The notes under the pieces: model-generated
Databases searched by the model: none
Seen by the model: the letters and a program-made list of their open reading frames with translations, nothing else
What the model was told of the DNA's origin: nothing
Program-made: the position numbers and the translations under genes
DNA from: Candidatus Hydrogenedentota bacterium
Lineage (GTDB): Bacteria; Hydrogenedentota; Hydrogenedentia; Hydrogenedentales; SLHB01
DNA: 64,000 nucleotides
Reading direction: 5' to 3'
Assembly: GCA_963668025.2 (NCBI GenBank)
Contig: CAXXTH010000018.1
Location: 513,763-577,762 of the forward strand
Shown here: positions 29,591 through 64,000 of the stretch, piece after piece
Layout of the letters: each line of letters begins with the position of its first letter
Numbering within the stretch: the stretch's first letter is position 1

Positions 29591-29632
29591 CCTTCCATAT
29601 GCGTGGCCATCACTTATACAAAACCGCGTCCG

Positions 29633-43194: not shown

Positions 43195-43253
43195 ATGGGC
43201 AAGGCCGAGTGCAGGATTGTCCTGTTTTCCATAAATATACGGAGAGCGTCGTG

Positions 43254-45040: not shown

Positions 45041-45255
45041 GGCATTACCTCGCAATCTGGGCGTTACGCTCCGAAAGCGGTGAATAAGCTATATCTATTA
45101 TAACACAACACGTATCCAAACAGCGGGCGGGCGTAAAAGATTCCCTCTCTTTCTCTATCCCAGAATTCGTTTTTCAGTAGGAAAATTAGATGCACTATGA
45201 TACAGTGCTGAACGGGTTCATAGGGTAGTCGTCTGAACTGGGAAGGGCGTTGTAC

Positions 45256-47265
45256 GTGGCTCATCTTCAGGGTTGGTGTATCTGCTCGCTTCTTATCCTC
45301 TCTCTTTTTCCTGCGCAAGCTCAGGAAGCTGCACCCGTTAACAGAGCTGCATATACGGCCCGGCTGGCGCAAGACCTTTCTGCGGGTTATCTGCATATGA
45401 ATGATAAAGAGGGCGCACTTTCCTTCAAAGCACTTCCTCCCGATTATCCCTCGGATGCCGCAACCGGCGCGATTTCCATCGGCGAAGCCAAAAACGATTT
45501 CATCGGTTACGCTTGTGACAAGAATACCCAGCACGTATGGATTGACATCAATCGCAACCTGGACCTCACTGATGATCCATCCGTTCACGTTTGCCCAGTG
45601 GAAACGGAATATATAAACCATCACTATGCAGACGTTGAGTTTGATATGCCCGGCGAACCTGCCCGGCGATACAGGATGGATATTCGATTAAATTCATTGG
45701 CTAAAACCAGTTTTACGGTCATATCTGGCTGGGAGGGTTTCGTCGAGCTGCCGACAGGGAAGTATCCCATCAGCATAACCGATAATCTGAATGGAAACAT
45801 TGATTCTGGTGACGCCGTGATGATCGGGTATCGAGGGGCCGAAACAGTAGAGAGTTATAGGCCAGGAGGCATCTGCGCGGCAGGCAATCCCAGCCACTTA
45901 TTCATTGACGGGAAAAACTACGCAATAACCTACCGGTTTGAACCGGGTGCTGCCGGTGTAGACTTGCTGGCGGAATTCCATGAAACCTCTTCTCCCATGC
46001 TGGAAGCCATCGTGGCGGGCCGACATATCGACCGGATGGTGTTGGTTGGAAATCAAGGAACGTTATTTCTCGACTATCCCAGCGCAACCATAGCGGTTCC
46101 CGCAGGTTCATATACGCTCACGAGAATCATCTTGAATGCAGGCAAGGAAGATTGGAAATTCGAAAGCGCTCCCGGCCATCGGTATGTCTTTGAAGCGGGC
46201 AAGCCCGTTATCATCGAAGAAGGCGCGCCGCTCAGCAACTCGCTGGACTTGCATAAAGGTGTATTCGTTGTTTCCACCAGCTACAAGCTCCGCGACAAGA
46301 CGGGTGCAACGTATGAGCCCGTTTCGCCATTTGATCTACCGCGTCCCCAGTTACTTGTGCTCAAAGGCGGCAAGCAGATTTTATCCACCAATTTTGAGTA
46401 TGGGTGAGGGGGCACATGTTCGTACTCATGGCGAGTACCTCTGGCCGCATACGGCGAATATGAATTCGCATCGGAGTGTGATATTGGTTGTCTGGGCGAC
46501 AAAGAAGGCCTTCGCCAAACCTTGCACATAACGCCGGTAGGAACGATGATTCATATATTGCCAGTCCTGCTACTGCTCATGTTGTTTCTATTGCCCCGTA
46601 ACCGGAACCGGCATGTGTTGTGGGTGTTAGCATCATGTTTGGTGTCTGGTTTTATTATATATGCGTTTTACTCTATTACAGCCGACCCGGCGAATGGCAT
46701 AAAGAGTATTGCCATTGGTTTCTTGTTTTATATGTATGGCCTGTGCGCTGCATGGTTATTGTCTGGCAAAGATCGCATAAAAGCACGCGCGGTAAATTTA
46801 CTTTTTACCATGGCGAAACTATATGTATCTAGCGGTATTGCTGTGTTTGCATTCTGGGGTTTTTCTATGAATTTCTTTCTCTACCTAGTAGCGGAAGGGA
46901 TCGTGGCAGGGAGCATGTTTGTCGCATTGCTTCTTACGGGTGCCTGTAACTCAAAAGCATGTATAGCTAGACGTGTTATATACTGGCTGGCATTTTGGAT
47001 CATAATATTATCTTTGTTTTTAGGCATATTCTTTGGCACTATGGAAGCAAGATCGCCGTCAGAGGAGAGCGATATTTTCTTGAAGGTGCTTGCTTCGTAT
47101 ACGCTTATGGGAGTGGTCTTGTACATCCAGACGTTCCCGTTCATCGCCTTGGCCTTATGGGAGCCGCATTTCAAACAGCGTTTCAGCAGCGTATATCCCT
47201 TCCCGCCAGAACCGGAGGATACACCGCTGGAAGTAGAGCCACCTGCTCCTACCGTAAACAGATAA
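45256..47265 (+). CDS. Predicted selenoprotein A1: exported domain, FEYG-U-GGTC, C-terminal multi-pass membrane domain (~669 aa)
   Basis: ORFs 45250-46407 and 46522-47265 are in one frame, separated only by TGA 46405-46407. Readthrough gives GGTCSYSWRVPLAAYGEYEFASECDIGCLG. SECIS-like hairpin follows. Confidence 0.82.
46422..46438 (+). promoter_or_regulatory. Candidate bacterial SECIS
   Basis: GTACTC-ATGGC-GAGTAC beginning 15 nt after the TGA. Confidence 0.75.
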
Positions 47266-47331
47266 GGTGTTTTGCAAACCAAAAGGCATCAAAACAGGCG
47301 AAAGAAAACAAGGAATCCGTTTCGCTTGTAT

Positions 47332-48099
47332 TCACTTCGCCGCGATGCGCGCCGCGCCGAGTGCGCCCGTGTATTGCGGATACATGGCCACTTGAATCGG
47401 CAGGGCCAGGGCGCGTTCGAGGGCTTTCGCCATACCCGGCACGAGCGCGCCGCCGCCGGTGAACGCTACGGGAGCAACAGGATCGCGGCCCGCCATGGCC
47501 TTGATGCGTGCGGCGATGCTGTGTTGCACACCCGCGCAAATATCCTCACGCGGCACGCCCGACGCCAGCAGGCCGATGATCTCTGTTTCGGCGAATACGA
47601 CGCACATGCTGCTGATGGCGGCGGGCTGTGCGCCACGGCTGGCGAGTTCGCCCAGCGCATCGAGCCGGACGCCCATGCGGGTGGCCACCACTTCGAGAAA
47701 ACGGCCCGTGCCCGCCGCGCAGCGGTCGTTCATCACAAAATCGTTCACCGTTCCTCCGCCGTTCAATCGAATGATTTTGCTGTCCTGTCCGCCCAAATCG
47801 ATGACCGTGCGGGCCTCGGGCATGAGCCAATACACCCCGGCGGCGTGGCAAGTGATCTCCGTCACCGTGGCGTCCGCGAAGCCGATCAACTGGCGGCCGT
47901 AACCGGTCGCCACGATACGGTGGACCGCTTCCCGTGTTAAGCCCGCTTCTTTCAACAGGCGCTCGAACAGGGAATCGGCAAGCGCCTCCTGCTCGACGCC
48001 TTGGTCCACCATGCCGAAGCGCAATAGGGACTGTTGTGTCGCGTCATATAGCGCCACTTTAATCGCCCGCGACCCGGCGTCAATTCCCGCAGTAATCAT
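47332..48099 (-). CDS. ATP-dependent activase (HgdC / BcrAD / BadFG ASKHA family)
   Basis: GIDAGS, ATGYGR, TEITCH, IDLGGQDSK, MNDRCAAGTGRFLE, SMCVVFAETE, FTGGGA. Confidence 0.93.
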   Translation of the reverse strand: MITAGIDAGSRAIKVALYDATQQSLLRFGMVDQGVEQEALADSLFERLLKEAGLTREAVHRIVATGYGRQLIGFADATVTEITCHAAGVYWLMPEARTVIDLGGQDSKIIRLNGGGTVNDFVMNDRCAAGTGRFLEVVATRMGVRLDALGELASRGAQPAAISSMCVVFAETEIIGLLASGVPREDICAGVQHSIAARIKAMAGRDPVAPVAFTGGGALVPGMAKALERALALPIQVAMYPQYTGALGAARIAAK

Positions 48100-49480
48100 G
48101 TTGGACTCCTTTGTTCTCCCGGCGCATATAGATGGCCTCCACCAATGCCTGCAATCGGGTGCGTAGCGACGGCCCCATGGCGTCGCTCACCGGCGGCGCT
48201 TCCAGTTCCACTACAGGCAATCCCAGCCGCTCCCGGACCTGCTGGGCGATGGCTTCGCCCTCGAAAGCGCAGTGGCTGGCTCCGGGAATGCGGGAAACCA
48301 CCACCCCTTCCGCGCGAAACCGGACGCAATCGGCGCATACGCGCACGGCGCGGTCTTCAGCGGAACCGGCCATCGGGTCCGCCAAGGCCGCACGCGTCAA
48401 GGCTTCCATGGGCGGAATATCCTCGGGCAGCGGGTCCAAGGCGTGGCTGAACATGAAATCCGTCCCAGCCAGCCGTGCGCCGCAGTCCTCGAATAGGTTC
48501 ATCATGCGCAGATCCGCCACGGGATTCACCCAGAACACGCGCGCGGCATCACTCGGCGCGACTCCCTCCTTATTCTCGACGCGGGTACACGCCAATGCCA
48601 GCATATCTTCCAAAACCGCCAGGCTCTCGGTGCGGTCGGAACAAAAATGAATCGCCAGCATCTCAGCGATGAGCATTTCCAGCGCCGGTATGGGGGCGGA
48701 AGACGTGGAATATGCGAGCTGGCGGAGTTCGCGCAGGGCCGCTCGCACCCGGTTGGCCTGCCGGACGCCGTCGCACAACGCTTCATCCGTTAGTGTGTGG
48801 CCCGCCAGCTCTTCGAAGGCGGCCCGCAACCGCTCCAGTTCTCCACGCACAAAGGCCACTTGCGCCGCTGGCGCGATGCATCCACCGGGCAATTCCACCG
48901 CCGGTTCGCCTGGCTCGGGAGTGCGGCGGTGGGGCATTTCCCACCACAGGATGGGGTAGCCAAGGCCGTTCAGCCGCTGGGCAATGGCGGAGAAGTCGTC
49001 GCATGTGGCCCCTACGCTGCACGTGAGCAGATCGGGGATCGGGAAATGGGCTTCGGTCAAAAATGCGCCCAGCATGGCGCGCACGGGACAGAAGGATTCG
49101 CCGACGCCCAGCGAATCGGCGATGGCCAGCAGGCCGGTATTCAACTCCATCACGCAGGGGATCCACCACGCCCCATCGGGATAAAACGCCACCAGTTCAG
49201 GAAAAGCATACGCCAGCACGGGAACCGTGCCCAGATCTTTCATGGTTCCTACGATTTTTTTACCGGATGCCCGGGCCGCGTGGAGTCGGTCTTCCTCCGT
49301 GAGCAGGAAATTCCACAGCCGGAACGCGGCGGGGCTGTCATCGTAGAGCAAGCGTTCAAGGCGGAGATCGCCATCTTCGTCGACATGGCGGCGGAGCGGG
49401 CCATGGTAAGACACGCGGCTTTCGCTTGCCGCATAATGTGCGTCCATGGCATCAAGAGATATTTTCGGCACGATGGTCAT
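48080..49480 (-). CDS. 2-hydroxyacyl-CoA dehydratase (HAD) family subunit, divergent
   Basis: FCPVRAMLG, GATCDDF, GASHCAFE, LRTRLQAL.E. Start MTIVPK overlaps the upstream stop (ATGA). Confidence 0.78.
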   Translation of the reverse strand: MTIVPKISLDAMDAHYAASESRVSYHGPLRRHVDEDGDLRLERLLYDDSPAAFRLWNFLLTEEDRLHAARASGKKIVGTMKDLGTVPVLAYAFPELVAFYPDGAWWIPCVMELNTGLLAIADSLGVGESFCPVRAMLGAFLTEAHFPIPDLLTCSVGATCDDFSAIAQRLNGLGYPILWWEMPHRRTPEPGEPAVELPGGCIAPAAQVAFVRGELERLRAAFEELAGHTLTDEALCDGVRQANRVRAALRELRQLAYSTSSAPIPALEMLIAEMLAIHFCSDRTESLAVLEDMLALACTRVENKEGVAPSDAARVFWVNPVADLRMMNLFEDCGARLAGTDFMFSHALDPLPEDIPPMEALTRAALADPMAGSAEDRAVRVCADCVRFRAEGVVVSRIPGASHCAFEGEAIAQQVRERLGLPVVELEAPPVSDAMGPSLRTRLQALVEAIYMRRENKGVQHDYCGN

Positions 49481-50460
49481 CGCAAGGCCTCTAGGAATGA
49501 CTCGAGCCGCGTGGCGGTGCGCGGTGTGACGCCCTCGTCGTCGGCATCCACCGCCACCACCGGCAGCGTGGTCCATTCCCGCAAGCGGGCTTCTTCCGCC
49601 GCCCACGTGTCGCACCACAAACGCCGGATGAACACGACGCCCCGCACGCCGCGCGCGGCGAACTCCCGTTGCAGCCATTGATAGAGCAGCGTGTTGGGCC
49701 GCCGAAATGCATCGGGAATGCCGCTGAAGTAGGCTCCGGCCAGTTCACCAAAAGGATCGTCGTGTAGCGCCCGCCGGTCAAACGGGGCAGGCCAAGTACG
49801 TTCGCCGTTACCTGTTGCGTCGAGTACGAGGCGTCCGCCCCGCGCCTCGATGAAGTCAAATAAGTCCCAAAACCGTTCCGGCAATTCGGGGCCTACGACA
49901 GCCACCGGTATGCCTTGGCCACAATCAGGGATTCCTGGAAAGGCGGGCAGCGCCGTGTTCGGATCTGACTGGCATTTGCGGAGCGCCGACGCGAATACAC
50001 GGGCGGGCATCCAGGGGCGTGCATCGCGCAGACGCCGCCGGACGGTGTCATAGGCGTTCATCACTTCCGCGAGACTGGCGTTGCTGGGCCTTTCACCACC
50101 CAGCCGACACAGGAATCCTCCTAGACGCGCCAGTTCGCTTGCATACAACCGGTGCGCACTGGACGTCTGCCATGTGGCGGGCGCGTGCAGCAGGAAAACC
50201 GGATACGAGCACTCCCGCGCGGCCATCTCTGCGGCGCGGCGCATCTGGTCGCATGCCGTAGTGAAGACAGCGCCTTGGACGGGCGCTTCGCGCAAGGCAT
50301 GGACATACGCGCCCGCGTAGGCGCATACGCCCATGGGCATGGGCGCGGGAGGCTGCAAAATCGGCAGCCGCACGGAGCACACGCCATGGGCGCACAGCCA
50401 TTCCGGCGGCACGAATGGGCTGTCGCATGCCACGGCCAGCTTGGGTTCAAGGAGCGTCAT
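49477..50460 (-). CDS. HAD family subunit (short)
   Basis: SPFVPPEW, GVCAYA, TTACDQMRR, WCDTW, TRLESFLE. Confidence 0.78.
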   Translation of the reverse strand: MTLLEPKLAVACDSPFVPPEWLCAHGVCSVRLPILQPPAPMPMGVCAYAGAYVHALREAPVQGAVFTTACDQMRRAAEMAARECSYPVFLLHAPATWQTSSAHRLYASELARLGGFLCRLGGERPSNASLAEVMNAYDTVRRRLRDARPWMPARVFASALRKCQSDPNTALPAFPGIPDCGQGIPVAVVGPELPERFWDLFDFIEARGGRLVLDATGNGERTWPAPFDRRALHDDPFGELAGAYFSGIPDAFRRPNTLLYQWLQREFAARGVRGVVFIRRLWCDTWAAEEARLREWTTLPVVAVDADDEGVTPRTATRLESFLEALR

Positions 50461-50466
50461 GCCAGG

Positions 50467-51702
50467 CTACGCCCTCGCCTTGGCCGTCTCGAACAGCGCC
50501 TCGACGCGCACGGCGATGCGGGCGGAATCGGACGGCGAATAATCGGTTTCGAGACGCAGATAGGGCAGCCCCAGTTCCTCGATGGCGAACCGCCGCACGT
50601 GGAACGACTCGACATCGTAAGTGAGGCAGGCCTGCCAGACCAGTTCGATGATGCAATCGGGTCGGTATTCCGCCGCCAGCCGCCGCAGGCTCTCGATGCG
50701 GTCCGTGTTGGGCGTCATGACCGAGCAGGGCAGGTGGTAGTATTTAGCGGCCAGGGCGCGCAGCGGGTCGGGCGCGTATTCGTCTACATCCTCAATGATG
50801 GGCTTCACTCCGGTGCAGTTTTCCATGCAGACCACCAGCCCGCCGCTGGCTTCGATGATATCCAGGACGCGCTCCGCGCCATGGGGCATGGGCACGCCAG
50901 TCAAGAGCACGCGCGTGCGCTGGCCTGGATCAGACGGATCGGACAGATCGGACGGATCATGGTAATATGCGATGGCGCGCTCGTATTGGGCGAAGTCGGC
51001 TTCGAGGCCGGAGATGCTGCTCTTGAAAGCCAGCAATTCGTGGCTCGTGAACGGTGGTTCAGCGCGTTGCATCAGGGCGGCAAGTTCGCGGCGCAAGGCG
51101 CGTTCGCGGTTCATCACGCAGATAGCCGCGCGCAACGCATCGTCGGTGATGGCGCGGCCATAGCGCGCCTCGAGAAACGCCAGGAACGCGCGCAACTGGT
51201 TTTCCCAATAATCGAGGGCCTCGGGCCGCCCTTGTTTCTGGGGCAACTCGAGGATGTACATCTCCTTGCGGGCGGCCATCAGTTCATACATTTTCTTCTT
51301 CGCGTCGCAGGTCGTTTCCGCCACCACCAGGTCCGCCATTTCGAGGAACGGATTCGACTGCCGCGCGAAATAGCCATAGGTGGATTTCACCAGCGGGCAC
51401 AGGTTGGCGGGCAGGTGTTCCTCCGCCGCCGGGATGGTGGCCGCCGAACCGCCGCACAGGCAGACGGGCACGGCCCCCGCCGCCATAAGTAATTCGCGCG
51501 GGGTGTATTCACACATAATGCCCACGATGGGACGTCCCGCCGCCTGCTGTTCCCGCGCATACGCCAGGCAGTTCTCGATCATGCGCCCGAAATGGGCCTG
51601 GAACGCATGGGCGGCTGGCGCGGCCTTGCCACACGCCGGGGCCGCTGACACACAGGGATCCCCCGGCGTGATATGCACATCGCCTCCATAACACTTGCTC
51701 AT
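50467..51702 (-). CDS. Double-cubane-cluster anaerobic reductase-like protein (HAD family)
   Basis: GIMCEYTPREL, VCLCG, LPANLCPLVKSTYG, ETTCDAKKKMYE, ENCTG, LPCSVM, QACLTY, ETDYS. Confidence 0.85.
   Translation of the reverse strand: MSKCYGGDVHITPGDPCVSAAPACGKAAPAAHAFQAHFGRMIENCLAYAREQQAAGRPIVGIMCEYTPRELLMAAGAVPVCLCGGSAATIPAAEEHLPANLCPLVKSTYGYFARQSNPFLEMADLVVAETTCDAKKKMYELMAARKEMYILELPQKQGRPEALDYWENQLRAFLAFLEARYGRAITDDALRAAICVMNRERALRRELAALMQRAEPPFTSHELLAFKSSISGLEADFAQYERAIAYYHDPSDLSDPSDPGQRTRVLLTGVPMPHGAERVLDIIEASGGLVVCMENCTGVKPIIEDVDEYAPDPLRALAAKYYHLPCSVMTPNTDRIESLRRLAAEYRPDCIIELVWQACLTYDVESFHVRRFAIEELGLPYLRLETDYSPSDSARIAVRVEALFETAKARA
50927..50958 (-). repeat. In-frame 9-bp tandem repeat (DPSDLSDPSDP)
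   Basis: GATCCGTCC GATCTGTCC GATCCGTCT GATCC inside the reductase CDS. Confidence 0.7.
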
Positions 51703-51710
51703 GATACCCC

Positions 51711-52508
51711 CTATGATTTTTGGGCGACAATAAGCCCTTGAATAATTTTGCCTTGTTCCGCCAACTCACGCATGAACACCATCTCACCGCCCATGGCCTG
51801 CATCAGTTCCAGGTCGAATCCGATGCATCTGAGTGCGTCATAAGTAAGCTGCCGGGTAAGCATGTCGATATACAACGCCACACAAGGAGCAAAGCGGCCT
51901 GTATCTGCTGCATGCTTCACCGTACAGCCTGCCCCTTCGAGCAGCGCCGCATACCTGTCCAGCGTGAACACATTGGGGAATTTCATGAAGGCGCGGAATC
52001 GGGCGTCTTCCTCGGGCGTGAGGCCAGCCGGCCCCGCCAGCCAGTCCGTGAACGCAACAATCCCGCCAGGCTTCACCAAACGCACGGCCTCGGCGATGAG
52101 CTGGGGCTTGTCCTCGACATAACACCAGGCATCTTCACCCCACACGAAATCGGCCTCGCTCGATGGCAGGCCGCTGGCGCATACATCCGCCAGCGTGAAG
52201 GTGATGCGGTCCGCCAGCCCCTCGGCATTGCACCGGCCACGCCCGAGCTCGACTACATGCTCGGTGGCGTCTACGCCCTGCATGGCCGCGATGTCGCGAA
52301 AACGCACGAGGAAACGCATGCCAGCGCCGGTGCAACAGCATAAATCGATGCCGCGCATCCCGGGTTTAAAACCCGCCTTATCCGCAAGGTCCATGGACGA
52401 TTGGAAACCCCCAATATGGACCTGCTCCCCCATGACCAATTCCCATAAATCGCCCTCGGGGCCGCCATACACGGCCTGGACATCTTCGAGATGATATTCT
52501 TTCATCAT
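51711..52508 (-). CDS. Class I SAM-dependent methyltransferase
   Basis: HIGG, IDLCCCTGAG motif I, GVDAT, FVWGEDAWCYV, LVKPGG. Confidence 0.88.
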   Translation of the reverse strand: MMKEYHLEDVQAVYGGPEGDLWELVMGEQVHIGGFQSSMDLADKAGFKPGMRGIDLCCCTGAGMRFLVRFRDIAAMQGVDATEHVVELGRGRCNAEGLADRITFTLADVCASGLPSSEADFVWGEDAWCYVEDKPQLIAEAVRLVKPGGIVAFTDWLAGPAGLTPEEDARFRAFMKFPNVFTLDRYAALLEGAGCTVKHAADTGRFAPCVALYIDMLTRQLTYDALRCIGFDLELMQAMGGEMVFMRELAEQGKIIQGLIVAQKS

Positions 52509-52634
52509 ATACTACCTCCCAAATCATCTGCTTTTTGAGTCTCTTGAGCTTTTTGTGGCAAAAGAAAACCCTTCGCCAGTTCTTCAGAACCGGCGAAGGG
52601 CAAATCGCGTTTGGGCATGGAACGCCCGTATGCG

Positions 52635-54098
52635 CTAGAAGCTGATCGTCTGGACCTCCATCTTGCTATCCCAGGGGCCAGGTGTAAATGTACATAAGAC
52701 TTTATAGCTCTTGCCTTTCTGAGGGCCACTCCATGTGGCCGAGCAACTGAAGCCTCACCCATACTCGAATTGGCCTTGGGCCACGACCTCGCCGTCATCC
52801 GTCACAATCTTGTACGTGGGCTCTTTGGGCCGTGAATTATTCGTCGCGGACATAGGGATCGCATCGCCCGAACCTGCCACACGATCCAGCCTGTTCACGG
52901 CTTCTTTGCCTTTACCCATCATCGTGAAATTGAGCCGCACTCCATCCGAATGGCCTGAAGCAAAATTCTCTTTATCCCATTGATACACAAATACCGCAGG
53001 CGAATAGGGCTCACCGAAAACGGTTTTGACCGTTTCACCCGCCTTCGCCGTCCATATCGGTGTTTCATTCGTAGCCATCGCACCCATGCGCCAGGTATCG
53101 CCCTTCTTATCTTTCTTCACGGACTGGTACATGGCCACCATGTAGTCGCCGGGGGGAACGAGCACTTTGCTGGTAACGCCATACGCCATAACACCGTCCT
53201 TGGTGGCGTTCGCGGCAGCAAGCTGGACCATCGTGGCTTCCTGCCCGAGCTTCACCGTAGCCAGCGGCTCCGGCGTAGGTTCGAGGGTCATTTTCTTCGC
53301 GGGAATATCAACCGCCACCGTATACAGCGCGCCATCCAGGTACAAGTATTTGCCCATGGGGCACGTATCGTAATAATCAAGCTGTTCCTTGTCACTTAAT
53401 ACAAACAAATCGGCTCGTATATACAGAGGCTGATACGGCATATCCCGGTTCATTTCCGACATCTTCGCCTTATCCATAGGCTCCGCTAAATCCGAGAAAT
53501 TACCGTTCCCATTGCCGTCGCCCAGCATAATGCGATACGTCTTGGCATTCAGCTCGAATGTCCCCTTGTAAGCGCATGCTGTCCGGCAGATAAGCTGGAC
53601 CCTTTGAATAACGAGCTTTCCATTCTCGTCCTGTATTTGCATGGGATACGCCTGGAAAGCGAGCCTATACGGCGTATTGTTCCCACCTACGGGAATGGTT
53701 AGATCAAAAGGCTCCCAGTTCGAATAGTCGGTGCTGAACTCACTTGCCGTTGCCCACGCCTCTTCGGCCAGATCGCCATCGCCGTCCATATCGAAGAGCA
53801 GCTTGTCGTAGAAGCCATCCTCTTTCGACGGTTCAAGCACGACCAAGCGTTTTACACCGCCTAGCTCGATAATGGTATAGAGCTGCTTAGCGCCTGTGAA
53901 CTCCGGCAGTTTCCACTCGCCGGGCGGGATTTCCGGCTTGGCTTCGTCGCCCCTTCCACCACCAGGGATGAATGTCCTGTTGTCGTTCGATTGGGTGACA
54001 TACTCGAGGGGAACCTCGATAGCCGCCGCCATGGCCGCCATCGAAAAAATCCACGCGCATGCCATAAATATTGTGATGCCTCGTATTCTCACCATCAT
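52635..54098 (-). CDS. Predicted selenoprotein B: secreted, C-terminal FEYG-U-GFSC
   Basis: Apparent stop TGA 52755-52757. Readthrough adds U+GFSCSATWSGPQKGKSYKVLCTFTPGPWDSKMEVQTISF up to TAG 52635. Signal peptide; DxDGDGD motifs. Confidence 0.8.
52724..52740 (-). promoter_or_regulatory. Candidate bacterial SECIS
   Basis: GGCCAC-ATGGA-GTGGCC beginning 15 nt after the TGA. Confidence 0.75.
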
Positions 54099-54130
54099 TT
54101 AGATCCTCCTGCAAGTTAACCTCCATACGC

Positions 54131-54155
54131 GCATGGGCGGGACGCCCATGCTACG
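54131..54155 (-). repeat. GTAG-type REP palindrome
   Basis: GTAGCATGGGCGTCCCGCCCATGC. Confidence 0.75.
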
Positions 54156-54162
54156 TGCGTAT

Positions 54163-56175
54163 TTACTCCAGTGTAGCCTCCAGGGGTGGAGGGGTAGTTT
54201 CTATTGCCGGTGCATGCTCCGGCTCCAGCGGGAAGGGAAACACGCTGTAGAATCGCTGCTTGAAGTGGGAATCCCAAAGCGCCATGGCGATGAATGGCAG
54301 CGCCAGGACGTACAAAATCACCCCTATAAATGTGCATACACCAAGCACCATCAGGAAAATATCGCTCTCCCCTGATGTTATCGCAGCCACAGCGCCAAAC
54401 AGTATGCCCACCAACAAAACCGTTGCTATGCTCCAAAAGGCCAGCCAGCATACGACTCGTGTAGCGGTGCATGTTTTTAAGCAACAGACGCCGGTAAGAA
54501 GCAACGCAATGAATAAAATCCCTACGGCGATCCCTTCCATCACAAGGTATATAAAGAAATAGGAGGCGCCGCCTCCGTAAGCAAACAGGGCGATGCAGCC
54601 AAACACATATGCTTTCGCCATGGTGAAAAACAGGTTCACCGCGCGCGCCTTTATACGGTCTTTGCCAGATAATAACCACGCAGCGCATAAGCCATACATA
54701 TGGGAAAGCAAAAACACAACGGACAGTGTCACGGCAATATTCGCCCGTTCGGGCGAAATAGAGCAACATGCATATCCGGCCAAAGCCGCCACTACCGCTA
54801 TCGCTAGAATCCTCAACACATGGCGGTTGCGGTTGCGCGGCAGTAGAAACAGCACAAGCAATAGCAGGAACGGCAATAAACGAATCACGGCTCCTGTAGG
54901 TGCAATGTAATAGGTTTGGCGCGGGCCTTCTTTGTCGCCCAAACAGCCAATATCACACGCGCAAGCGAATTCGTATTTACCAAATGCGGCCAGAGGTACT
55001 CGCCATGAGTACGAACAGGTGCCCCCTCACCCATACTCGAAATTGGCGGAAGAAATCTGCTTGCCGCCTTTGTACACCACAAAAGATGGACGCGAACGCT
55101 TTGTGGATGAAGCAGGTTCATATTCCGCGCCGGTCTTGTCACAGAGTTTGTATCCGGCAGTAACCGCGAACACGCCTTTACACAGTTCAAGCGTGTTGTT
55201 CAGTGGCGCGCCTTCCGCGATGGCGACAGGCTTGCCCGCTTCAAAAACATACGAGCGAGAAGGAGAACTCTCGAACATCAATTCTTCTTTGCCGGCATTC
55301 AAGAGTATTTTCGTGAACGTAAATGAACCTGCGGGAACGGCCACGGTTCCACTGGGATGATCGAGAAACACCGTTCCTTGCTCTCCAACGAACACCATTC
55401 GTTCAATATACTGTCCCTCCACGGCGGCTTCCGCCATGGTCACGGGCGCTTCACGAAATTCCACTATCAAATCCGCGCCGGTAGCGCCCGGCTCGAAGCG
55501 GTAGGCAATCGTGTAATGCTTCCCGTCAACGAACAACTGGCTGGGATCGCCTGCCGCGCAGATGCCTTGTTGCTCATGATTCGCCAGTTTCTCCGCACCG
55601 CGAAACCCGAGCAGCACGGCGTCGCTGGAACCAATGGTTCCATTCAAATCATCGGTTACGCCAAGGGGATAGCGCCCGGTCGGCAGGTCGACAAAACCGG
55701 TCCAACCGGAGGTAATCGTCATTCGGGTCATGCCAACAGGATATATTTGAATATCCATCTTGTAATGCCGGGCGGGCTCACCCGGCATATCGAATGCTAC
55801 ACCTCGATAGGTGATGCCATAGTCGTTTTCCATATTGTCTATAAGGACCGGCGGATCATCGGCGAGATCCAGGTTGCGGTTCGCATCAATCCATATGCGC
55901 TGGGAGTTCTTGTCATAGGCGAAACCGATGAAATCGCCTTTGGCTTCGCCGATGGAAATCGCGCCGGTTGCGGCATTCGCGGGATAATCGGGGGGCAGTG
56001 TTTTAAAAGTGACCGTACCCCCTTTCTCTCCCATAGAAAGATTGCCTGCGGACATGTCTTGCGACAGCCGAGCCGTATAGACGGCTCCATCAACGGGAAC
56101 AGCTTCCTGGGCCTGCGCAGGAAAAAGAGAGAGGAAAAGAAATGAGCAGACACACCAATTCTGAAGACGAGCCAT
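54163..56175 (-). CDS. Predicted selenoprotein A2 (paralog of A1, ~670 aa)
   Basis: ORFs 55027-56175 and 54163-54942 are in frame across TGA 55027-55029: FEYG-U-GGTCSYSWRVPLAAFGKYEFACACDIGCLG. Confidence 0.82.
54996..55012 (-). promoter_or_regulatory. Candidate bacterial SECIS
   Basis: GTACTC-ATGGC-GAGTAC beginning 15 nt after the TGA, identical to the A1 hairpin. Confidence 0.75.
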
Positions 56176-56378: not shown

Positions 56379-57854
56379 ATGACACGAAAAGCGGCCGTTA
56401 TTGCGATTGCGGTATTTTTTACACTCGGATTTCCTTGTTACGCGGAATTAGCGCCCATTGCCATCGAGTCTGGCATACAGGCGTATCAAGTCATTCAATG
56501 CGATGCGCATGGCCTGGCTGAGGTGAACTGTGCGGGCAGGGTGGATGCTGTTGCATCCGGCACTGTCGAGACCCGAGTCCTTTCCAAAAAACACAAGGTG
56601 AAACCCTGGTCGGCCGTCGGCACGGTGTCCGATTCAAAGTGGAATGCACACATCGCTGGTCTGCCCGTGGGCGGACCCTATGCCATCGAATTTCGCGCCA
56701 AGGACGACACCGGTAAAACGCGCGCGGAAACTGTCGTTCAGGAAGTATTGGTGGGGGATCTATGGATACTGGCCGGGCAGTCCAATATGGAAGGATATGC
56801 AGATCTGGTTCATACCGCGGAACCTTCTCGACAGGTGCATGCGTTCTATATGAACGATACCTGGCAAATCGCCAAAGAGCCGCTTCATGACTTATGGTCT
56901 TCCTGCGATCACGTCCATAATAGCGTAAGCGGTGAAAAGTCACCGGCAAAGGGGGCGGGATTGGGGCTGCCCTTCGCCTTGGAGATGGCCCGCCGCACGG
57001 GCCGCCCGGTGGGGCTTATCCCCTGTGCGCATGGCAATACTTCCATGACGCAGTGGAATCCGGAATTGAAGGAGCCATATGGCGACTCGTTATACGGTTC
57101 GATGTATCGGCGGTTTCTGGCAGTGGGCGGGCATATTCGCGGCGTCTTGTGGCATCAGGGCGAATCGGAAACGTTGTCCGATGAAGATGTCGCCGCATAC
57201 CCCCAACGGTTGAGCAGCCTTGTTCGAGCGATACGCACGGATTTCGCGTCGCCCGATTTGCCCTTCTACTATGTGCAGATTGGGCGCACGGTGCATTTTG
57301 CACCGATAGAACCACGGCGCTGGAACGCCATTCAGCAGGCCCAACTGGATGCGGAAAAGCTCATCCCCCATGTTGGAATGACTGCCAGTATAGATTTGCC
57401 GCTAGATGACTTTGTGCATGTGAGCACGGATGGGCACAAAGTGCTTGGGCAGCGATTGGCTGCGCTTGTTTGCCGGGATTTATTTGGCGAGGCATCCATC
57501 CAGGGAGGCCCGCGTTTCTCCCAGATGGAGATGGTCAAGACGCCTTATGCTCTCGAGCTTCACGTCCGGCTTCAAGGAGTCAACGGCAAACTGCAAGCGG
57601 CGGGGCGCGTGTCAGGCTTCAGCCTGAGCGATGCGGAAGGGCGTGACCTCCCCATGATCGTCGAGCAGAGCCTATCAGATGAGGAGCCAGCGACTGTGAT
57701 CCTGCGCCTCACGACGCCGCTGGGAGGCTGCCCGGAGCAGGTGTACCTGTGGTATGGGCACGGGCTGAATCCGTACTGCAATGTAGTGGATAGCCAGAAT
57801 CTAGCATTGCCGGTATTTGGGCCTGTGCCGGTGCTGGAACGCATTCCGTTCTAG
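56379..57854 (+). CDS. Sialate O-acetylesterase (SASA / SGNH) family, secreted
   Basis: GDLWILAGQSNMEG, PVGLIPCAHG, WHQGESE, DFVH. Confidence 0.88.
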   Translation: MTRKAAVIAIAVFFTLGFPCYAELAPIAIESGIQAYQVIQCDAHGLAEVNCAGRVDAVASGTVETRVLSKKHKVKPWSAVGTVSDSKWNAHIAGLPVGGPYAIEFRAKDDTGKTRAETVVQEVLVGDLWILAGQSNMEGYADLVHTAEPSRQVHAFYMNDTWQIAKEPLHDLWSSCDHVHNSVSGEKSPAKGAGLGLPFALEMARRTGRPVGLIPCAHGNTSMTQWNPELKEPYGDSLYGSMYRRFLAVGGHIRGVLWHQGESETLSDEDVAAYPQRLSSLVRAIRTDFASPDLPFYYVQIGRTVHFAPIEPRRWNAIQQAQLDAEKLIPHVGMTASIDLPLDDFVHVSTDGHKVLGQRLAALVCRDLFGEASIQGGPRFSQMEMVKTPYALELHVRLQGVNGKLQAAGRVSGFSLSDAEGRDLPMIVEQSLSDEEPATVILRLTTPLGGCPEQVYLWYGHGLNPYCNVVDSQNLALPVFGPVPVLERIPF

Positions 57855-57885: not shown

Positions 57886-58671
57886 TTAGCCAGTGGCGTT
57901 CTCCGAATCCTTATGGGGGCATGCCTTTTGGCAATCGTGGCAGACGATGCATTCGAGAGCGCGGCTCGGGGGCACGCCTTGGGCCATGTGTTTCGACGGG
58001 ATCCCATTGGCGGGGCAATACTTGTCGCAACGGTGGCATTCCTGGCATTTCGCGATAGGCTTCACGGTCCAGAAACTCACCAGATTGAGCGGGCCGAGAA
58101 TGGCCCCTATCGGGCAAAACACTTTGCAGAAGGAGCGGCTGCTGGCCATGGCCAGCAGCAATACGACGGCGAGCACGCCCAGTTTGATCCAGGAGCCCGC
58201 GTCCAGTCCAGCGATTCCCGCGCTGGCAACGTTCGGCAGGGTGACTTCGATGGCGGACGCGGGGCAATAACGGCAGAACGAGAAAACGGTGGATTCGCCA
58301 AAGAGTGCAGGGAGCAGGAGCACAAATAGGACCAGCACGGCGTACTTAATGTATCCCGTCCAATTCGGCAAAATGTATTTGCGTCCTGGGATCTTATAGA
58401 GCAAATCCTGTATGAATCCAAATGGGCACACCCACCCGCATAGCAGCCGTCCGAAAACTACTCCGAGCGCCAGCACAGTTCCTACGGCCAGAAAGGGAAA
58501 AGCCCAATAGGCCGCATAATGGACAAATACGCCGATGGGACAGGCGAACCAAGACAGCGGACAGGAATGGCAAGTAAGCACGGGATTACACAGCCATTTC
58601 GCGTCCAATCCCCACGAACAATGGAGCATCACCAGCGCCGAAATCTGAACCCACCACCGCCGCAACATCAC
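57886..58671 (-). CDS. Membrane 4Fe-4S binding protein (NapH/YccM-like polyferredoxin)
   Basis: CHSCP...CPIG, GRLLCGWVCPFG, FCRYCP, FCKVFCPIG, CxxCxxCxxxCP twice. Confidence 0.9.
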   Translation of the reverse strand: MMLRRWWVQISALVMLHCSWGLDAKWLCNPVLTCHSCPLSWFACPIGVFVHYAAYWAFPFLAVGTVLALGVVFGRLLCGWVCPFGFIQDLLYKIPGRKYILPNWTGYIKYAVLVLFVLLLPALFGESTVFSFCRYCPASAIEVTLPNVASAGIAGLDAGSWIKLGVLAVVLLLAMASSRSFCKVFCPIGAILGPLNLVSFWTVKPIAKCQECHRCDKYCPANGIPSKHMAQGVPPSRALECIVCHDCQKACPHKDSENATG

Positions 58672-59012: not shown

Positions 59013-60998
59013 CTAAAGCAGGTTCCTTTCATATTGGTACGCCAGCATGCGAAGGTTCTCCCGCCGTATGGTGACGCGCCGTTTGTCCAGATAATCCAGA
59101 ATCGCGATGGCGTATTTCCGCGTGGACTCTATCCTATACTTAAAATCCGCCGAATCCAGTTTTCCGTCCCGCTGGATGGCTTCCACGGCGATAGTCTGCG
59201 CACGTTGCATGGCAGAATAGCTCAGCACCACGTTTTTAGCAAGCCGGATCAGCAGCCCCTCGGCGCAGGCGAGCTGCAACAGCTTTTCGATGTGAGCCTC
59301 CGACGCACCGAGTAGTTCTGGCAATTCATCCGGGCGGGGCGATTGGAAGGCGTTTTCTTCATACACCGTCAAAATACGTTCGAGCAGCGCGCGGTCGTCC
59401 TCGGGCAATCGTTCCAATGCGCCGCGCAGCACCATACGCCCCGTGCGCGACGCCGTTGCTCCTTGCTGTTTGAGCCCTGCTTGGGCCTTGCGCCAGAAGG
59501 GCGCGGGCCATCCTAATTCCTGCTGCAACGCCGCAGTGTTAAGCTCGATGGCCCCGCCTTGTTCAAGGCGTTCCTTGAGCAACGCCACGCCTTCCTGGAA
59601 ACGGCCCGCATCCGCGTAGTGGCCGTCCTCGAGTGCGAGGAGTTCGCCGGACGCCGCCAAGATATCGAGCCGGGCGCGCGCCGTTTCAATGGGCAGATAA
59701 GCGGCTCGCGCGGCGGTTTCGAGGGATGCGCTAGGCGCATCCGCCGTGTGAAAGAAATGGCGCAGGCGTCGGCGCTGTCCCTCTTCCGAGAACGGCTCCG
59801 CATCGCCAAGGGCCTCCGCACACGCCACCAGTTCATCCAACGCTTGTTTCTTGCGAGGGCGGTTCGCGCCCGCGTAAATGGCCCATATATCGCCCCCAGC
59901 CACTGTAGTCGCAGGCGATATGCGCCGCAGGATGAAGCGGTCATGCGGAACCACTGCTATAGGTTCGCTCAAGGCCAGCACCGCCCAGCACGGCTCGCTT
60001 TCGCGCGCCTGTTCTTGGTCGAGGAGATACACCTTGCCCGGCTGCTCGCTCGTGCCGGTATGCAGCCGGACTTGCTCGGCGTTCCGCAGCGGCGTATCGA
60101 TTCCCGCCGCCGCACGCAAGCGCACGCCAAAAAAGGAGGCCGCCTGCAAATAGCCCGGTGCGGCGATGGACTGCCCACGCTCGGGGGGCGTCTTGCCGAA
60201 CTCGGGTACGTTGAGGGCGAGGCATTGTCCGCTGGCCCCCTCTTCCGCTTGCCGCAAGAAACACTGGATGCCCCGGATATGCCCCCGCTGGCCGCCGGGG
60301 GCCAATTCGACTTCATCGCCCACGCGCACCTGGCCGGATAACGGAATGCCGGTGGCGACGGCCCCGAATCCTTTGCGCAGAAAGACGCGCTCGATAGGCA
60401 TGCGGAAGATCCCCGCGCGGCGGGTTTGTTCGGCGGCGCGGATGGCGGACACGAGGGTTTCGTAGAAAGGCCAGAATCCTTCACCCGTCTCGGAAGACAC
60501 GGGGCAAATGGGCGCGCCGTCGAGGAACGTGCCCGCGGTGAAGACACGCAGATCCTCGATCACCTCGGCCACCCGTTCCGGCGTCACGAGGTCGATCTTC
60601 GTAAGCGCGATGATGCCGCGCCGCACGCCGAGAAGATCCATTATCTGGAAATGCTCGATGGTCTGCGGCATGATGCCGTCATCGGCGGCGACCACGAGGA
60701 TCGTAAGATCGATGCCCGAAACGCCCGCCACCATGTTGCGGATGAATTTTTCGTGGCCGGGCACGTCGACGATGCCTACGCATAGTTTGCCGCCCAGACA
60801 ACAGGGCGCGAAACCGAGTTCGATGGTCAGCCCGCGCTCCTGCTCGATCTTAAGGCGATCCGTGTTACAGCCCGTAAGCATCTTCACGAGCCGGGTCTTG
60901 CCATGGTCCACGTGCCCCGCCGTGCATACCATCATGAGCACGTCGGGCTCGACCTCGCGCCGGAGGAGTCCCGGCGGCGATGCGGCATGGGTGGCCAC
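59013..60998 (-). CDS. selB: Selenocysteine-specific elongation factor
   Basis: TAGHVDHGKT, EQERGLTIELGF, DVPGHEKF, LTKID, C-terminal STRKYAIAILDYLD winged helix. Confidence 0.95.
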   Translation of the reverse strand: MATHAASPPGLLRREVEPDVLMMVCTAGHVDHGKTRLVKMLTGCNTDRLKIEQERGLTIELGFAPCCLGGKLCVGIVDVPGHEKFIRNMVAGVSGIDLTILVVAADDGIMPQTIEHFQIMDLLGVRRGIIALTKIDLVTPERVAEVIEDLRVFTAGTFLDGAPICPVSSETGEGFWPFYETLVSAIRAAEQTRRAGIFRMPIERVFLRKGFGAVATGIPLSGQVRVGDEVELAPGGQRGHIRGIQCFLRQAEEGASGQCLALNVPEFGKTPPERGQSIAAPGYLQAASFFGVRLRAAAGIDTPLRNAEQVRLHTGTSEQPGKVYLLDQEQARESEPCWAVLALSEPIAVVPHDRFILRRISPATTVAGGDIWAIYAGANRPRKKQALDELVACAEALGDAEPFSEEGQRRRLRHFFHTADAPSASLETAARAAYLPIETARARLDILAASGELLALEDGHYADAGRFQEGVALLKERLEQGGAIELNTAALQQELGWPAPFWRKAQAGLKQQGATASRTGRMVLRGALERLPEDDRALLERILTVYEENAFQSPRPDELPELLGASEAHIEKLLQLACAEGLLIRLAKNVVLSYSAMQRAQTIAVEAIQRDGKLDSADFKYRIESTRKYAIAILDYLDKRRVTIRRENLRMLAYQYERNLL

Positions 60999-61001
60999 GG
61001 G

Positions 61002-61386
61002 CTAGAGCCCCACTTCCTGGCAAACTTCCTTATAGAACATCATGGCGGTGCAGCCGCCGAAGGCCACGGCCAGCCGCGCCGTTTCGTCGATTTCGTCTTT
61101 CGATATGCCCATCTGAACGGCCCCTTGCAGATGGATCTTCAGGCAAGGGTGGCAGTGATGCGCAATGGATAGCAGAATGGCCATCAGCTTCTTGTGTTTC
61201 GCATCAATCAGCCCCGGCGCGTTGGCTTCTTTCATGAAAGCTTTGAATGATTCAAACGGGTCCATATTCGGATCTCCTTGTATGGGCGGGGTCTTCACCG
61301 GCGTGATGTCCGGCGGTTCACAGCAACAGGCCGCGTCTTCAACGGGCGCTGCTATCTCAATCGGCTTGTCTTTCAGGCGGTTCATA
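61002..61386 (-). CDS. Carboxymuconolactone decarboxylase / AhpD-like domain (possibly the C-terminus of SelD)
   Basis: KHKKLMAILLSIAHHCHPCLKIH..GA...G...DEI.E, FGGC; preceded by a CCC linker. Confidence 0.75.
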
Positions 61387-62632
61387 TCCACCGTCGCTGG
61401 CTCGCCCACGAACCGGCCCAGGGGCGGCGTTGGTAACGATGACCCGGCCTTCAGTCTGCCCGGGCGCTTTCTCCACAATCCGCCCGATAGCCGCCGCCGC
61501 AGTATGCCCGCGCATCTTCATATCATCCAGAAACGCTTCCGCTTGCGCGGGCGGCAAGGCGATGAGCAATCCGCCGGAAGTTTGCGGATCAAACAGCACC
61601 GGCAAACCGCCCTGGCCCGCGCCTTCGGTGATGTCGATCCAGCTCATGGCGTACGCCTGGTTGCGGTCCACCGCCCCGCCGAACACCTCGTGCGCAAGGC
61701 AGGCCGATGCGGATGCGAGCACGGGAATGGCGGACATATCGATTTCGGCGTTGACGCCGCTGCCGCGCACCATGGACACAAGATGGCCCGCCAAGCCGAA
61801 TCCGGTCACATCGGTGCAGGCATGCGCGCCGTGGCGCAGCATCAGTTCGGATGCGTCGCGATTGAGGGCCGCCATCCACTCTCCCGCTTCATTCAGCGCC
61901 GCCTCGTCTATCACGCCCAATTGGGCCGCGAAGGACACGATGCCCGTGCCCAGCGGCTTGGTGAGGACAAGGACATCGCCGGGCTGGGCGCAGTCGCGCG
62001 CGATGGGCTGGCGGGGGGTCGATGACGCCCGTGACCGCGAAACCACATTTGATCTCTTCGTCGTTGATGCTGTGGCCGCCGATGAGGGCGCAGTTGGCTT
62101 CTTCGAGGGTTTCCATGCCGCCCAGCAGCATCTCGCGCAGAATACCTCCATCCAGCGTCTCGATGGGGAATCCCACGATCGACAGCGCCGTGATGGGCCG
62201 CCCACCCATGGCGTAGACATCGCTTACGGAATTGGCGGCGGCGATGCGCCCGAACAGGCGGGCGTCATTGACGCATGGTGTGAACACATCGACCGTCTGC
62301 ACCAGCGCCGTCCGCTCATCCAACCGGTAGACGCCCGCATCGTCGCCCGCCGCTGCGCCCAGCAGCACATTCGGGTCCGTGGGCAGCGGAAGGCCGCTGA
62401 GCAATTGTTGCAAGTCGGCCTGCCCGATCTTGGACGCGCACCCGGCCTTGCGGACATATTGGGTCAACGCGGCGCGGCCAGTCTTCACGGAAATACGTTC
62501 ACCCGCACACGGGCATACATTCTGTTCGATGAGCGGCGGGCACGGGCACGGATGCTTAGGATTGCAGATGCAATGCCCCAGCTTGCGCGAACGCTCCATC
62601 ACCGCCCGGCGTCGTTCGAGATCAATGGCCAA
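61357..62632 (-). CDS. selD: Selenide, water dikinase with Cys-rich N-terminal extension (frameshift near 62015)
   Basis: KAGCASK, GDDAGVY, QTVDVFTP, AANSVSDVYAMGG, GGHS, LTKPLGTG, TDVTGFGLAGH, DPQTSGGLL. One extra C in a homopolymer. Confidence 0.9.
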
Positions 62633-63165: not shown

Positions 63166-63187
63166 TCAATCATACACATTAAGTGCT

Positions 63188-64000
63188 TCACGATTCATAC
63201 AATCCGATGCGGCGCAAGGCGTCCGTCACATCGTTCTCTTCGCCTTCCAGCAGCGTGCGGGCGTCCAACCATACCGCGTCCTCCTGCACGCGTGCGATGA
63301 TCGGCGGCTCGTTGTAGCGCAACGCTTGCGCCAAGGCATCCGCGCTCCATCCCGGACGCGCCACGCGAAGGCCCCAGGAAGGGATATCCACGGCAGGCAG
63401 TGAACCGCCGCCGGTAGCGCTCGCCATGGCCACAATGGCCACATCGAGCGGGAATGCCGGCCAGCGCCGCGCCCATCGCCTCGGCACGCGCGCGGACGCT
63501 TTCCACCGGCTCGGCGAGCATCCGCAGCGTGGATGACGTTCGAGCAGTTTCTCCGGTTCGAGAAACAGCCGCAGTGTGTGTTCCAAGGCCATGTCGGTGA
63601 GCTTGCCCACGCGCAGCATGCGCGTGAGGGGATGCTTGCGGATGCGGTCCACTAACGGCTTTTTGCCTACAATGATGCCCGCTTGCGAGCCGCCGATGAG
63701 CTTGTCGCCACTGAAACAGCACAAAGTCCGCTCCGGCGGCGATGCTGTCGGGCACGGTAGGCTCGTGTGGGAGGCCATACGCGCGCAGGTCCATTAATGC
63801 GCCACAGCCCAGGTCGTCGATGAGTAGGAGGTTGTGCTTCCTCGCCAACGGCGCGAGTTCAGCGGTCTCGACTTGTTTCGTGAAACCGACGATGCGGTAA
63901 TTGCTGGCGTTGACCCGCAAGATAGCTCCAGTATGCTCCGTGATGGCGGATTCGTAATCCCGCAAATGTGTCTTGTTGGTCGTGCCCACCTCGATGAGCC
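63188..64000 (-). CDS. selA: L-seryl-tRNA(Sec) selenium transferase, 3' part (three apparent frameshifts)
   Basis: EVGTTNKTHL.DY, SNYRIVGFT, DDLGCG, FSGDKLIGGSQAGII, HPL.R.LRVGK, GGGSLP, LDARTL, spread over shifting frames. Confidence 0.92.

Follow-up and report, generated by a model that had tools for sequence, protein, structure and literature searches.

Three genes with an in-frame UGA

The window analyzed here is a 64,000-nucleotide (nt) stretch of a Candidatus Hydrogenedentota bacterium (assembly GCA_963668025.2, contig CAXXTH010000018.1, positions 513,763 to 577,762 of the forward strand), and it contains three genes, here called A1, A2, and B, whose reading frames apparently end at a TGA directly after the peptide FEYG. 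An earlier note made from the sequence had proposed that these genes encode exported selenoproteins in which the UGA specifies selenocysteine (Sec, U). We located the three sites at the positions given in that note, with FEYG-TGA-G at each, and in A1, A2, and B alike the frame stays open past the TGA. The text after the TGA reads GGTCSYSWRVP in A1 and A2 and GFSCSATWSGP in B, in keeping with the conserved G-[GF]-[TS]-C-S-x-x-W-x-x-P that the note had described, and readthrough does fuse A1 and A2 in frame with the next open reading frame (ORF), at 46522-47265 and 54163-54942, respectively. The three TGAs were confirmed, with zero differing letters, by contigs of two public sequencing runs (X1 and X2); X1 and a third run (X3) may come from the same sample as the assembly, which makes them independent of the assembly and not of the organism. 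The short-read contigs of X1 and X2 break at 46421-46434 and 54988-55013, in the near-identical Sec insertion sequence (SECIS) stretch of A1 and A2, and assemblies of the locus are expected to fragment at this repeat.

A1 comprises a signal peptide, a beta-sandwich ectodomain, Sec386, and about seven transmembrane helices. A2, the first gene of the client operon described below, is its paralog (63% identical), and at the DNA level the two genes share 73% identity overall and 98% across a 15-codon stretch with the UGA as its first codon. The note had held that B is very different from A1 and A2; this was true of a sequence search, where resemblance was confined to the surroundings of the Sec site (E 0.002), but not of a profile comparison with hhalign, which aligned the whole A ectodomain (probability 99.9%, E 8e-36, 377 columns). 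A1, A2, and B are the only copies of the family in the window's genome.

The TGA is invariant among relatives

The FEYG-TGA-G pattern is far beyond chance, because the same TGA recurs at 47 distinct sites elsewhere and in 25 of 25 matches from the window's phylum. The relatives came from a scan for the motif NLDLTDDP in one genome per GTDB species, which yielded 33 loci in metagenome-assembled genomes (MAGs) labeled Verrucomicrobiota, Hydrogenedentota, Kiritimatiellia, Opitutia, Riflebacteria, Aminicenantes, Nitrospiraceae, Sumerlaeota, and 'Eubacteriales', about eight phyla in all; Bacteroidota gave one weak match only. The readthrough ORFs were listed as 50 entries representing 47 distinct 48-nt sites, and since at least one gene was listed twice (L008 and L036 are the same contig), the distinct sites were used for counts, from which one member with an upstream frameshift (L038, FKFG-stop-GGVCTYSWRVP) was left out. 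TGA is the first codon in all 47, and neither a Cys codon nor TAA nor TAG occupies the Sec site in any of them. Scanning for the motif with U, C, or a stop behind it gave 45 places: 43 are family members, every one with TGA, and the two that carry Cys belong to unrelated sequences.

Within the window's phylum, the family was present in 17 of the 135 genomes searched, with exactly one TGA in each of the 25 matches spanning the site, and three matches without a stop cover N-terminal parts only. Three of 40 related genomes had homologs, again with one TGA in each match across the site. In a collection of 5.8 billion proteins, FEYG or a sequence very like it forms the exact C terminus of all 12 A-type and all 22 B-type proteins, the window's own among the latter, and the named database entries of the family are called 'hypothetical protein'; a profile search with a 28-row A-type alignment returned only two proteins. 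These 34 truncated proteins bear out the note's expectation that gene callers would cut the family short, and no homolog was found to end with TAA or TAG, an outcome that it had named as support. The Cys-containing homologs that it had named as support did not appear among the database proteins, the 47 sites, or the phylum matches.

We distinguish three subtypes. A-type proteins have about 400 residues followed by U (UGGTCSYSWRVP) and an open frame of 268 to 332 codons that encodes membrane helices. B-type proteins are soluble (UGFSCSATW), with 39 codons after U in most, 36 to 43 in two copies of one gene, and 90 to 93 in three B-like genes. In the third subtype, C, the site reads TFEFGUGGVCSLSWREP and the neighbor is an 840- to 1160-residue protein of CarboxypepD_reg repeats. 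Subtype C occurs at loci L026, L039, L041, L042, and L043; its frame past Sec runs for 516 codons in L026 and 376 in L043, and the CarboxypepD_reg-repeat protein of L026 has a weak AhpC/TSA-like match at its C terminus. At another locus (L006, G032:C71) the A-type gene lies in two frames upstream of Sec, owing to a frameshift or an assembly error, and the adjacent B is intact. The U-x-x-x-C motif that the note had assigned to the family describes most members but not all: of the 50 listed ORFs, 47 have Cys at U+4 and one has it at U+5, which leaves two without.

A covarying hairpin follows the UGA

Seventeen nt past the UGA begins a hairpin with a 6-bp stem and a 5-nt AUGGN loop; in two sites a one-codon insertion ahead of it widens this gap to 20 nt. 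The B stem differs from the A1/A2 stem at three pairs, by compensatory changes. In the 47-sequence alignment, 98.6% of the 282 stem cells are paired, and changes on both sides occur in four of the six pairs (52 cells). None of 500 shuffles matched the pairing and covariation of the hairpin, and registers slid away from it paired in 25 to 56% of cells. A separate listing of 48 sites has six of six pairs in 44 and five of six in the other four. The stems found were GUACUC/GAGUAC, GGCCAC/GUGGCC, AGCCAC/GUGGCU, GAACUC/GAGUUC, GUACCC/GGGUAC, GCUCUC/GAGAGC, and GCACUC/GAGUGC. The encoded peptide varies with the stem (SYSWRV, SATWSG, SLSWRE, SNSWRV), and the Trp codon UGG stays in the loop. Because UGG sits in the loop and the flanking codons covary while the stem stays paired, the peptide motif S-x-x-W-x-x-P past Sec is, judging from the alignment, largely dictated by the RNA.

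The element was found by comparative analysis in place of single-sequence folding; folding of the 71-nt and 42-nt stretches past each UGA gave z scores of -1.46 to +0.71 and missed the A1/A2 hairpin. The bacterial SECIS model, as given in the portion of a 2026 review considered here (PMC13188914), has an apical loop of 3 to 9 nt with a G within its first two positions, an upper stem of 4 to 16 bp, a distance of 16 to 37 nt from UGA to apical loop, and a minimum free energy of -7.5 kcal/mol or lower. The 5-nt loop and 6-bp stem fit this model as outlined there, and the UGA-to-loop spacing of 20 nt (23 nt in the two insertion sites) does as well. The bare B hairpin has -10.1 kcal/mol; 13 of the 47 bare hairpins are at -7.5 kcal/mol or lower, and the 48-nt stretch is at or below this value in 47 of 47 sites.

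The region past the UGA is conserved as protein

By its substitution pattern, the region past the UGA is under purifying selection: when A1 is compared with A2, the ratio of nonsynonymous to synonymous substitution rates (dN/dS) comes to 0.34 upstream of the UGA and 0.29 downstream of the SECIS. Residues past U that are invariant in the A alignment are W, R, V, P, and later N-R, and in the B alignment Y465, G474, and P475. We built AlphaFold2 models of B and A2 with Cys replacing Sec. The B model has a mean predicted local distance difference test score (pLDDT) of 89.1 and a predicted template modeling score (pTM) of 0.86; its 39 post-Sec residues form three strands (pLDDT 91-94 over residues 440-487), and in this model the tail completes the last beta-sandwich. 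The A2 model (pLDDT 82.7, pTM 0.70) has beta domains up to residue 424, seven helices at 426-634, and a short C-terminal helix. The note had looked to conservation downstream of the TGA as support, and the substitution ratio, the invariant residues, and the confident models all supply it.

The ectodomain consists of tandem beta-sandwich domains with an invariant loop D-x-N-x-N-x-D-L-T-D-D, and in the aligned A membrane domains the helices are free of conserved polar residues. Foldseek searches of the PDB with both models returned only generic immunoglobulin (Ig)/fibronectin type III (FN3)-like sandwiches, at query-normalized TM-scores of 0.15 or less. A and B are predicted to be exported, with Sec facing the periplasm near the membrane, from the signal-peptide-like N-termini read from the sequence and the positive loop after the first membrane helix.

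UGA usage and the Sec machinery

UGA ends 7 of the 20 other Pfam-supported genes in the window and is the true end of 24 of 31 A-type genes, 268 to 332 codons past the read-through TGA; at these places it acts as an ordinary stop. The note had placed selA, selB, and selD nearby, and these genes are indeed present on the minus strand from 59013 to the end of the window, 4 to 9 kb upstream of A2 and on the same strand as it. In the window sequence selD and selA have one apparent frameshift each, at a short homopolymer. Run contigs lack the extra bases at 62013 (X1, X3) and 63723 (X3), and further single-base indels relative to contigs of runs X1 to X3 lie at 61421, 63450, and 63530. That selD and selA are pseudogenes was considered and rejected on the evidence of the X1 and X3 contigs without the extra bases, and the frameshifts are most likely assembly errors. 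Given the change at 61421, SelD probably continues into an AhpD-like CxxC domain, a reading that agrees with SelD ORFs of 533 to 557 residues in three other cassettes (L019, L022, and L035). The domain is similar to the AhpD portions found in the selenoprotein models MduS and ArsM/AhpD, but here it carries Cys.

The contig ends inside selA, where selC sits in four of the six loci having it. A tRNA-Sec was found in 6 of 17 other loci scanned, and in four of these six it precedes selA or selD at the edge of the locus; the genes lie at 3733-3829 in L021, at the left edges of L030-L033, and at 11839-11935 in L039, and the one in L021 is about 170 nt past the stop of the A gene.

In the window's phylum, selB scored above cut-off in 12 of 17 family-bearing genomes versus 13 of 118 family-free ones, counts for which no statistic is given, as related genomes are not independent. 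In 8 of these 12 genomes selB is on the family's contig, within a few kb. The five family-bearing genomes without selB include three with selA and two (one of which also has selA) with a SelB wing domain, and a Sec-machinery marker is thus present in 16 of 17, as the note's proposal of a link to Sec machinery would have it. Five further genomes lacked selB at the locus, and selB scored above cut-off elsewhere in four of them. No FdhA-type formate dehydrogenase was found in the window's genome, which is 93.75% complete.

A cassette of conserved neighbors

We clustered the neighbors at 34 loci, that is, the 33 loci from the scan and the window. The commonest neighbor of the family was a Fer4_5 protein (15 loci), followed by selB (11), selA (9), selD (8), an HGD-D family protein (8), and an activase (6), in the usual order selA-selD-selB-Fer4_5-A-(B)-(methyltransferase)-HGD-activase. 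The family is the client of a cassette whose parts tend to move as a unit: tRNA-Sec, selA, selD, selB, the NapH-like Fer4_5 protein, A and B themselves, and a double-cubane reductase with its activase. The window's features are collected in Table 1.

Table 1. Genes, UGA sites, and hairpins of the window; Sec and SECIS assignments are predicted
Feature	Coordinates	Strand	Remarks
A1, A-type selenoprotein gene	45250..47265	+	readthrough ORF, 671 aa (amino acids), Sec386
A1 Sec codon (TGA)	46405..46407	+	
A1 SECIS hairpin	46422..46438	+	GUACUC, loop AUGGC, GAGUAC
Acyl-CoA dehydratase-type activase ATPase	47332..48099	-	TIGR00241, 261 bits vs cut-off 125
HGD-D family paralog	48080..49480	-	start MTIVPK inferred, ATGA overlap with upstream gene
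HGD-D family paralog	49477..50460	-	
Double-cubane-cluster anaerobic reductase	50467..51702	-	NF040772, 406 bits vs cut-off 350
S-adenosylmethionine-dependent methyltransferase	51711..52508	-	best match DVU_1556 family, below cut-off
B, soluble exported paralog of A ectodomain	52635..54098	-	487 aa, Sec448, then 39-aa tail
B SECIS hairpin	52724..52740	-	GGCCAC, loop AUGGA, GUGGCC
B Sec codon (TGA)	52755..52757	-	
A2, A-type selenoprotein gene	54163..56175	-	readthrough ORF, 670 aa, Sec383
A2 SECIS hairpin	54996..55012	-	same as A1 hairpin
A2 Sec codon (TGA)	55027..55029	-	
NapH-like polytopic Fe-S protein	57886..58671	-	Pfam Fer4_5 + 2x[4Fe-4S] ferredoxin domain
selB, Sec-specific elongation factor	59013..60998	-	
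selD (Cys type) + AhpD-like CxxC domain	61002..62599	-	coordinates approximate
selA	63179..63998	-	cut by contig end

The Fer4_5 protein is 54 to 62% identical across phyla, with four C-x(2-3)-C...P motifs and two ferredoxin motifs, and scores 58.2 against the Pfam Fer4_5 cut-off of 22. A PDB sequence search with its profile returned only PsaC-type ferredoxin domains, so that solved relatives exist for the ferredoxin part only. In the other loci, seven of the eight HGD-D neighbors score above the NF040772 cut-off (392-414 bits). Between the window's Fer4_5 gene and A2 there is a sialate O-acetylesterase (SASA) gene (56379-57854, plus strand), which looks like an insertion into the cassette, because other genomes have the counterparts of these two genes side by side.

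Weighing the Sec reading

We conclude that UGA in A1, A2, and B is almost certainly decoded as Sec, and we hold with good confidence that the three are genuine selenoprotein genes, a conclusion that takes in the whole explanation, including the family and its cassette. The ribosome, having reached the UGA past F-E-Y-G, would meet the AUGGN-loop hairpin, which SelB with Sec-tRNA(Sec) would read as a SECIS; Sec would be inserted and translation would resume, so that A-type proteins would gain a further three beta strands and some seven membrane helices, and B-type proteins the 39 residues that would finish the last beta-sandwich.

Several observations weigh against this reading. A tRNA-Sec was absent from searches of the window and the assembly with ARAGORN and RF01852, the best RF01852 score in the assembly being 44.3 bits versus a gathering score of 47, and one family-bearing genome (G052, 84% complete, 720 contigs) yielded no sel marker. 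The loop G's are at positions 3 and 4, unlike the SECIS model as published in the part of the review used here (PMC13188914); the bare A-type hairpin reaches a median of only -6.0 kcal/mol; and, folded singly, the A1 and A2 sequences did not outperform shuffles (z -0.78 to +0.71). Two members lack the neighboring Cys; therefore a Sec/Cys redox pair is not essential everywhere, and the selenol alone may be the essential group. Cys homologs were found neither among the 12 A-type and 22 B-type proteins nor at the 47 sites nor in the 25 phylum matches, in searches of limited sensitivity, and the usual criterion of a Sec/Cys pair is therefore gone; Sec use in the family appears to be obligatory. 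On the functional side, the Fer4_5 neighbor scores 57.5 bits against NapH/MauN TIGR02163, where the cut-off is 213, and the function assigned to the family is drawn entirely from gene neighborhood.

Were the TGAs true stops, the downstream sequence would be separate genes (A) or noncoding (B) and the hairpin a regulatory or translational-coupling element. Gene callers agree on this, none of the 34 inspected database proteins extends past the stop, and the single-sequence folding of A1 and A2 is unremarkable; the downstream frame, however, is in phase and open in every homolog and has a dN/dS of 0.29, the B tail keeps invariant residues past the hairpin and in the model (pLDDT >90) closes a beta-sandwich, TGA is the sole stop seen at the site, and the sel genes and tRNA-Sec are next door, and we consider this explanation exceedingly improbable. 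Very improbable, too, is readthrough that needs no selenium, through a reassigned UGA (Trp or Gly) or near-cognate suppression inserting Cys or Trp. It would fit the open frames and an assembly in which tRNA-Sec was not found, but UGA ends 7 of 20 other window genes and 24 of 31 A-type genes, the family is spread across MAGs labeled with many phyla, the covarying hairpin stands at a SECIS-like spacing, and the linkage to selA, selB, selD, and tRNA-Sec is tight.

Comparison with known systems

The recoding mechanism itself is standard; what is new is the protein family, its cassette, and the absence of Cys forms. The note had not recognized the family as named, and indeed scans of A1, A2, and B against Pfam-A and NCBIfam 20.0 returned nothing better than E 0.13. 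The 2026 review compiles 119 prokaryotic selenoprotein families (PMC13188914), and no family in its inventory, as far as that was covered, has a matching motif, nor do those with models give a match. A literature search, together with Table 1 of the review, yielded no publication on a FEYG-U family. This is very probably an undescribed selenoprotein family.

Its closest parallel is the selenocysteine-assisted organometallic (SAO) cassette of Clostridia and others, as set out in the portion of Haft and Gwadz considered here (10.1101/2022.07.06.499078). Both have several selenoprotein genes per neighborhood that are truncated at Sec in databases, extracytoplasmic and membrane components, and recurrent adjacency to an NF040772 reductase and its activase. 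They differ in that no SAO model (NF0407xx) or other NCBIfam model matches A1, A2, or B, that the window operon has no ABC transporter or MerB-like enzyme of the kind described there, and that here the Sec proteins are beta-sandwich ectodomains and the Sec machinery lies within the cassette. That report also describes double-cubane proteins as tracking SelD-bearing genomes (955 of 970 high-scoring ones are in SelD-bearing assemblies) and as adjoining another selenoprotein cassette. The Tso 'three selenoprotein operon' and its kin from Haft and Tolstoy 2025, as summarized in PMC13188914, likewise combine several unrelated-looking selenoproteins that were noticed from truncated gene models, but by the review's table and the NCBIfam models their motifs (LULAxC, UxxxxU, NEPxGxxU, HSGNPxU, UxxV) are unlike FEYG-U-GxxC. 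The DsbA-, DsbG-, and TlpA-like UxxC/UGC selenoproteins covered in the same review share an exported, periplasm-facing Sec close to Cys; those have a thioredoxin fold and abundant Cys homologs, in contrast to the beta-sandwich, the U-x-x-x-C spacing, and the lack of any Cys form found here.

Membrane ferredoxins of the NapH/MauN/NosR type relay electrons to periplasmic enzymes. Like them, the cassette's Fe-S protein has a Fer4_5 domain, motifs of the CxxxCP type, and two motifs for ferredoxin clusters; unlike them, it scores far below the TIGR02163 cut-off, which marks a distinct subfamily, and is partnered with a selenoprotein in place of a reductase of nitrate or nitrous oxide.

According to the part of the deep-Sep report considered (PMC12013277), every known selenoprotein now appears to have a Cys counterpart, and its authors concede that families lacking one could escape their method. 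In that account, glycine reductase selenoprotein A had for years been named as the lone Cys-less family; with the FEYG-U family it shares an apparently obligatory Sec. The FEYG-U family would be an exception to universal Cys homologs, if deeper searches agree, and would escape the main discovery methods, which need such homologs; it is also invisible to standard annotation, every inspected database entry breaking off at the Sec codon. With it, the known selenoproteins gain a beta-sandwich type that is exported, anchored in the membrane, and spread over MAGs labeled with many phyla, and the family lends itself as a natural test case for why Sec sometimes has no substitute.

Possible function of the cassette

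Sec, usually with a Cys four residues on, may form a periplasmic redox or soft-ligand center. The NapH-like protein could supply electrons to the selenol (or selenenylsulfide) center of A, and A, together with its soluble paralog B, might use this selenol chemistry to reduce or carry a chalcophilic substrate in the periplasm, candidates being metal, metalloid, organometallic, or chalcogen species, which the ATP-activated double-cubane enzyme would reduce further in the cytoplasm. This pathway parallels the SAO cassette model of Haft and Gwadz as outlined in 10.1101/2022.07.06.499078. We offer the selenol-based reductase or carrier with NapH-like and double-cubane partners as a tentative assignment, somewhat short of an even chance. 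Equally tentative is the broader idea that the cassette is a self-contained, horizontally mobile 'selenocysteine island' that carries tRNA-Sec, selA, selD(-AhpD), and selB as well as their obligate clients, which with the NapH-like protein and the double-cubane reductase would make up a new selenium-dependent pathway from periplasm to cytoplasm for a chalcophilic substrate. If it is correct, the family would be the reason that the Sec trait persists in lineages without formate dehydrogenase, and the first selenoprotein family without any Cys counterpart. A whole Sec toolkit physically tied to its clients bears on how the Sec trait spreads and persists, and the cassette provides a second, independent genomic link of selenoproteins to the enigmatic double-cubane reductases.

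The main functional rival is selenium acquisition, in which periplasmic A and B would capture selenium on their selenol as a Se-Se or Se-S adduct and the membrane domain and NapH-like protein would deliver reduced selenium to the adjacent SelD-AhpD. We regard both halves of this scheme as unlikely. The adjacency of selA, selD, and selB in 8 to 11 of 34 neighborhoods speaks for it, as do the longer SelD (533-557 residues) in three clusters and the window's selD running into an AhpD-like domain, the Sec that is never replaced by Cys, and the in vivo selenium donor to SelD, which the review treats as unresolved in the part considered here (PMC13188914). Yet adjacency is equally explained by co-inheritance of the trait with its only clients, many loci carry the family without adjacent sel genes, the membrane helices have no conserved polar residues, and the double-cubane reductase and the methyltransferase would have no obvious role. 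There is little probability that A and B are structural or adhesive surface proteins in which Sec forms only a stabilizing selenenylsulfide cross-link. Their tandem Ig/FN3-like sandwiches, calcium-loop-like motif, and fold matches to adhesins and receptors are of this kind, but Sec is costly and is kept without exception, the partner Cys is missing in two members, and the conserved neighbors are redox proteins and not secretion or adhesion genes.

Other genes of the window

Upstream of A1 are two tandem BNR/sialidase-like paralogs (41980-44450, plus strand) and a PilZ-domain gene (44570-45055, minus strand). Farther away, the window contains a DDE transposase gene (24824-25915, plus strand) and, at 27656-35170 on the minus strand, an FG-GAP repeat protein of 644 residues beside a 1845-residue ORF.

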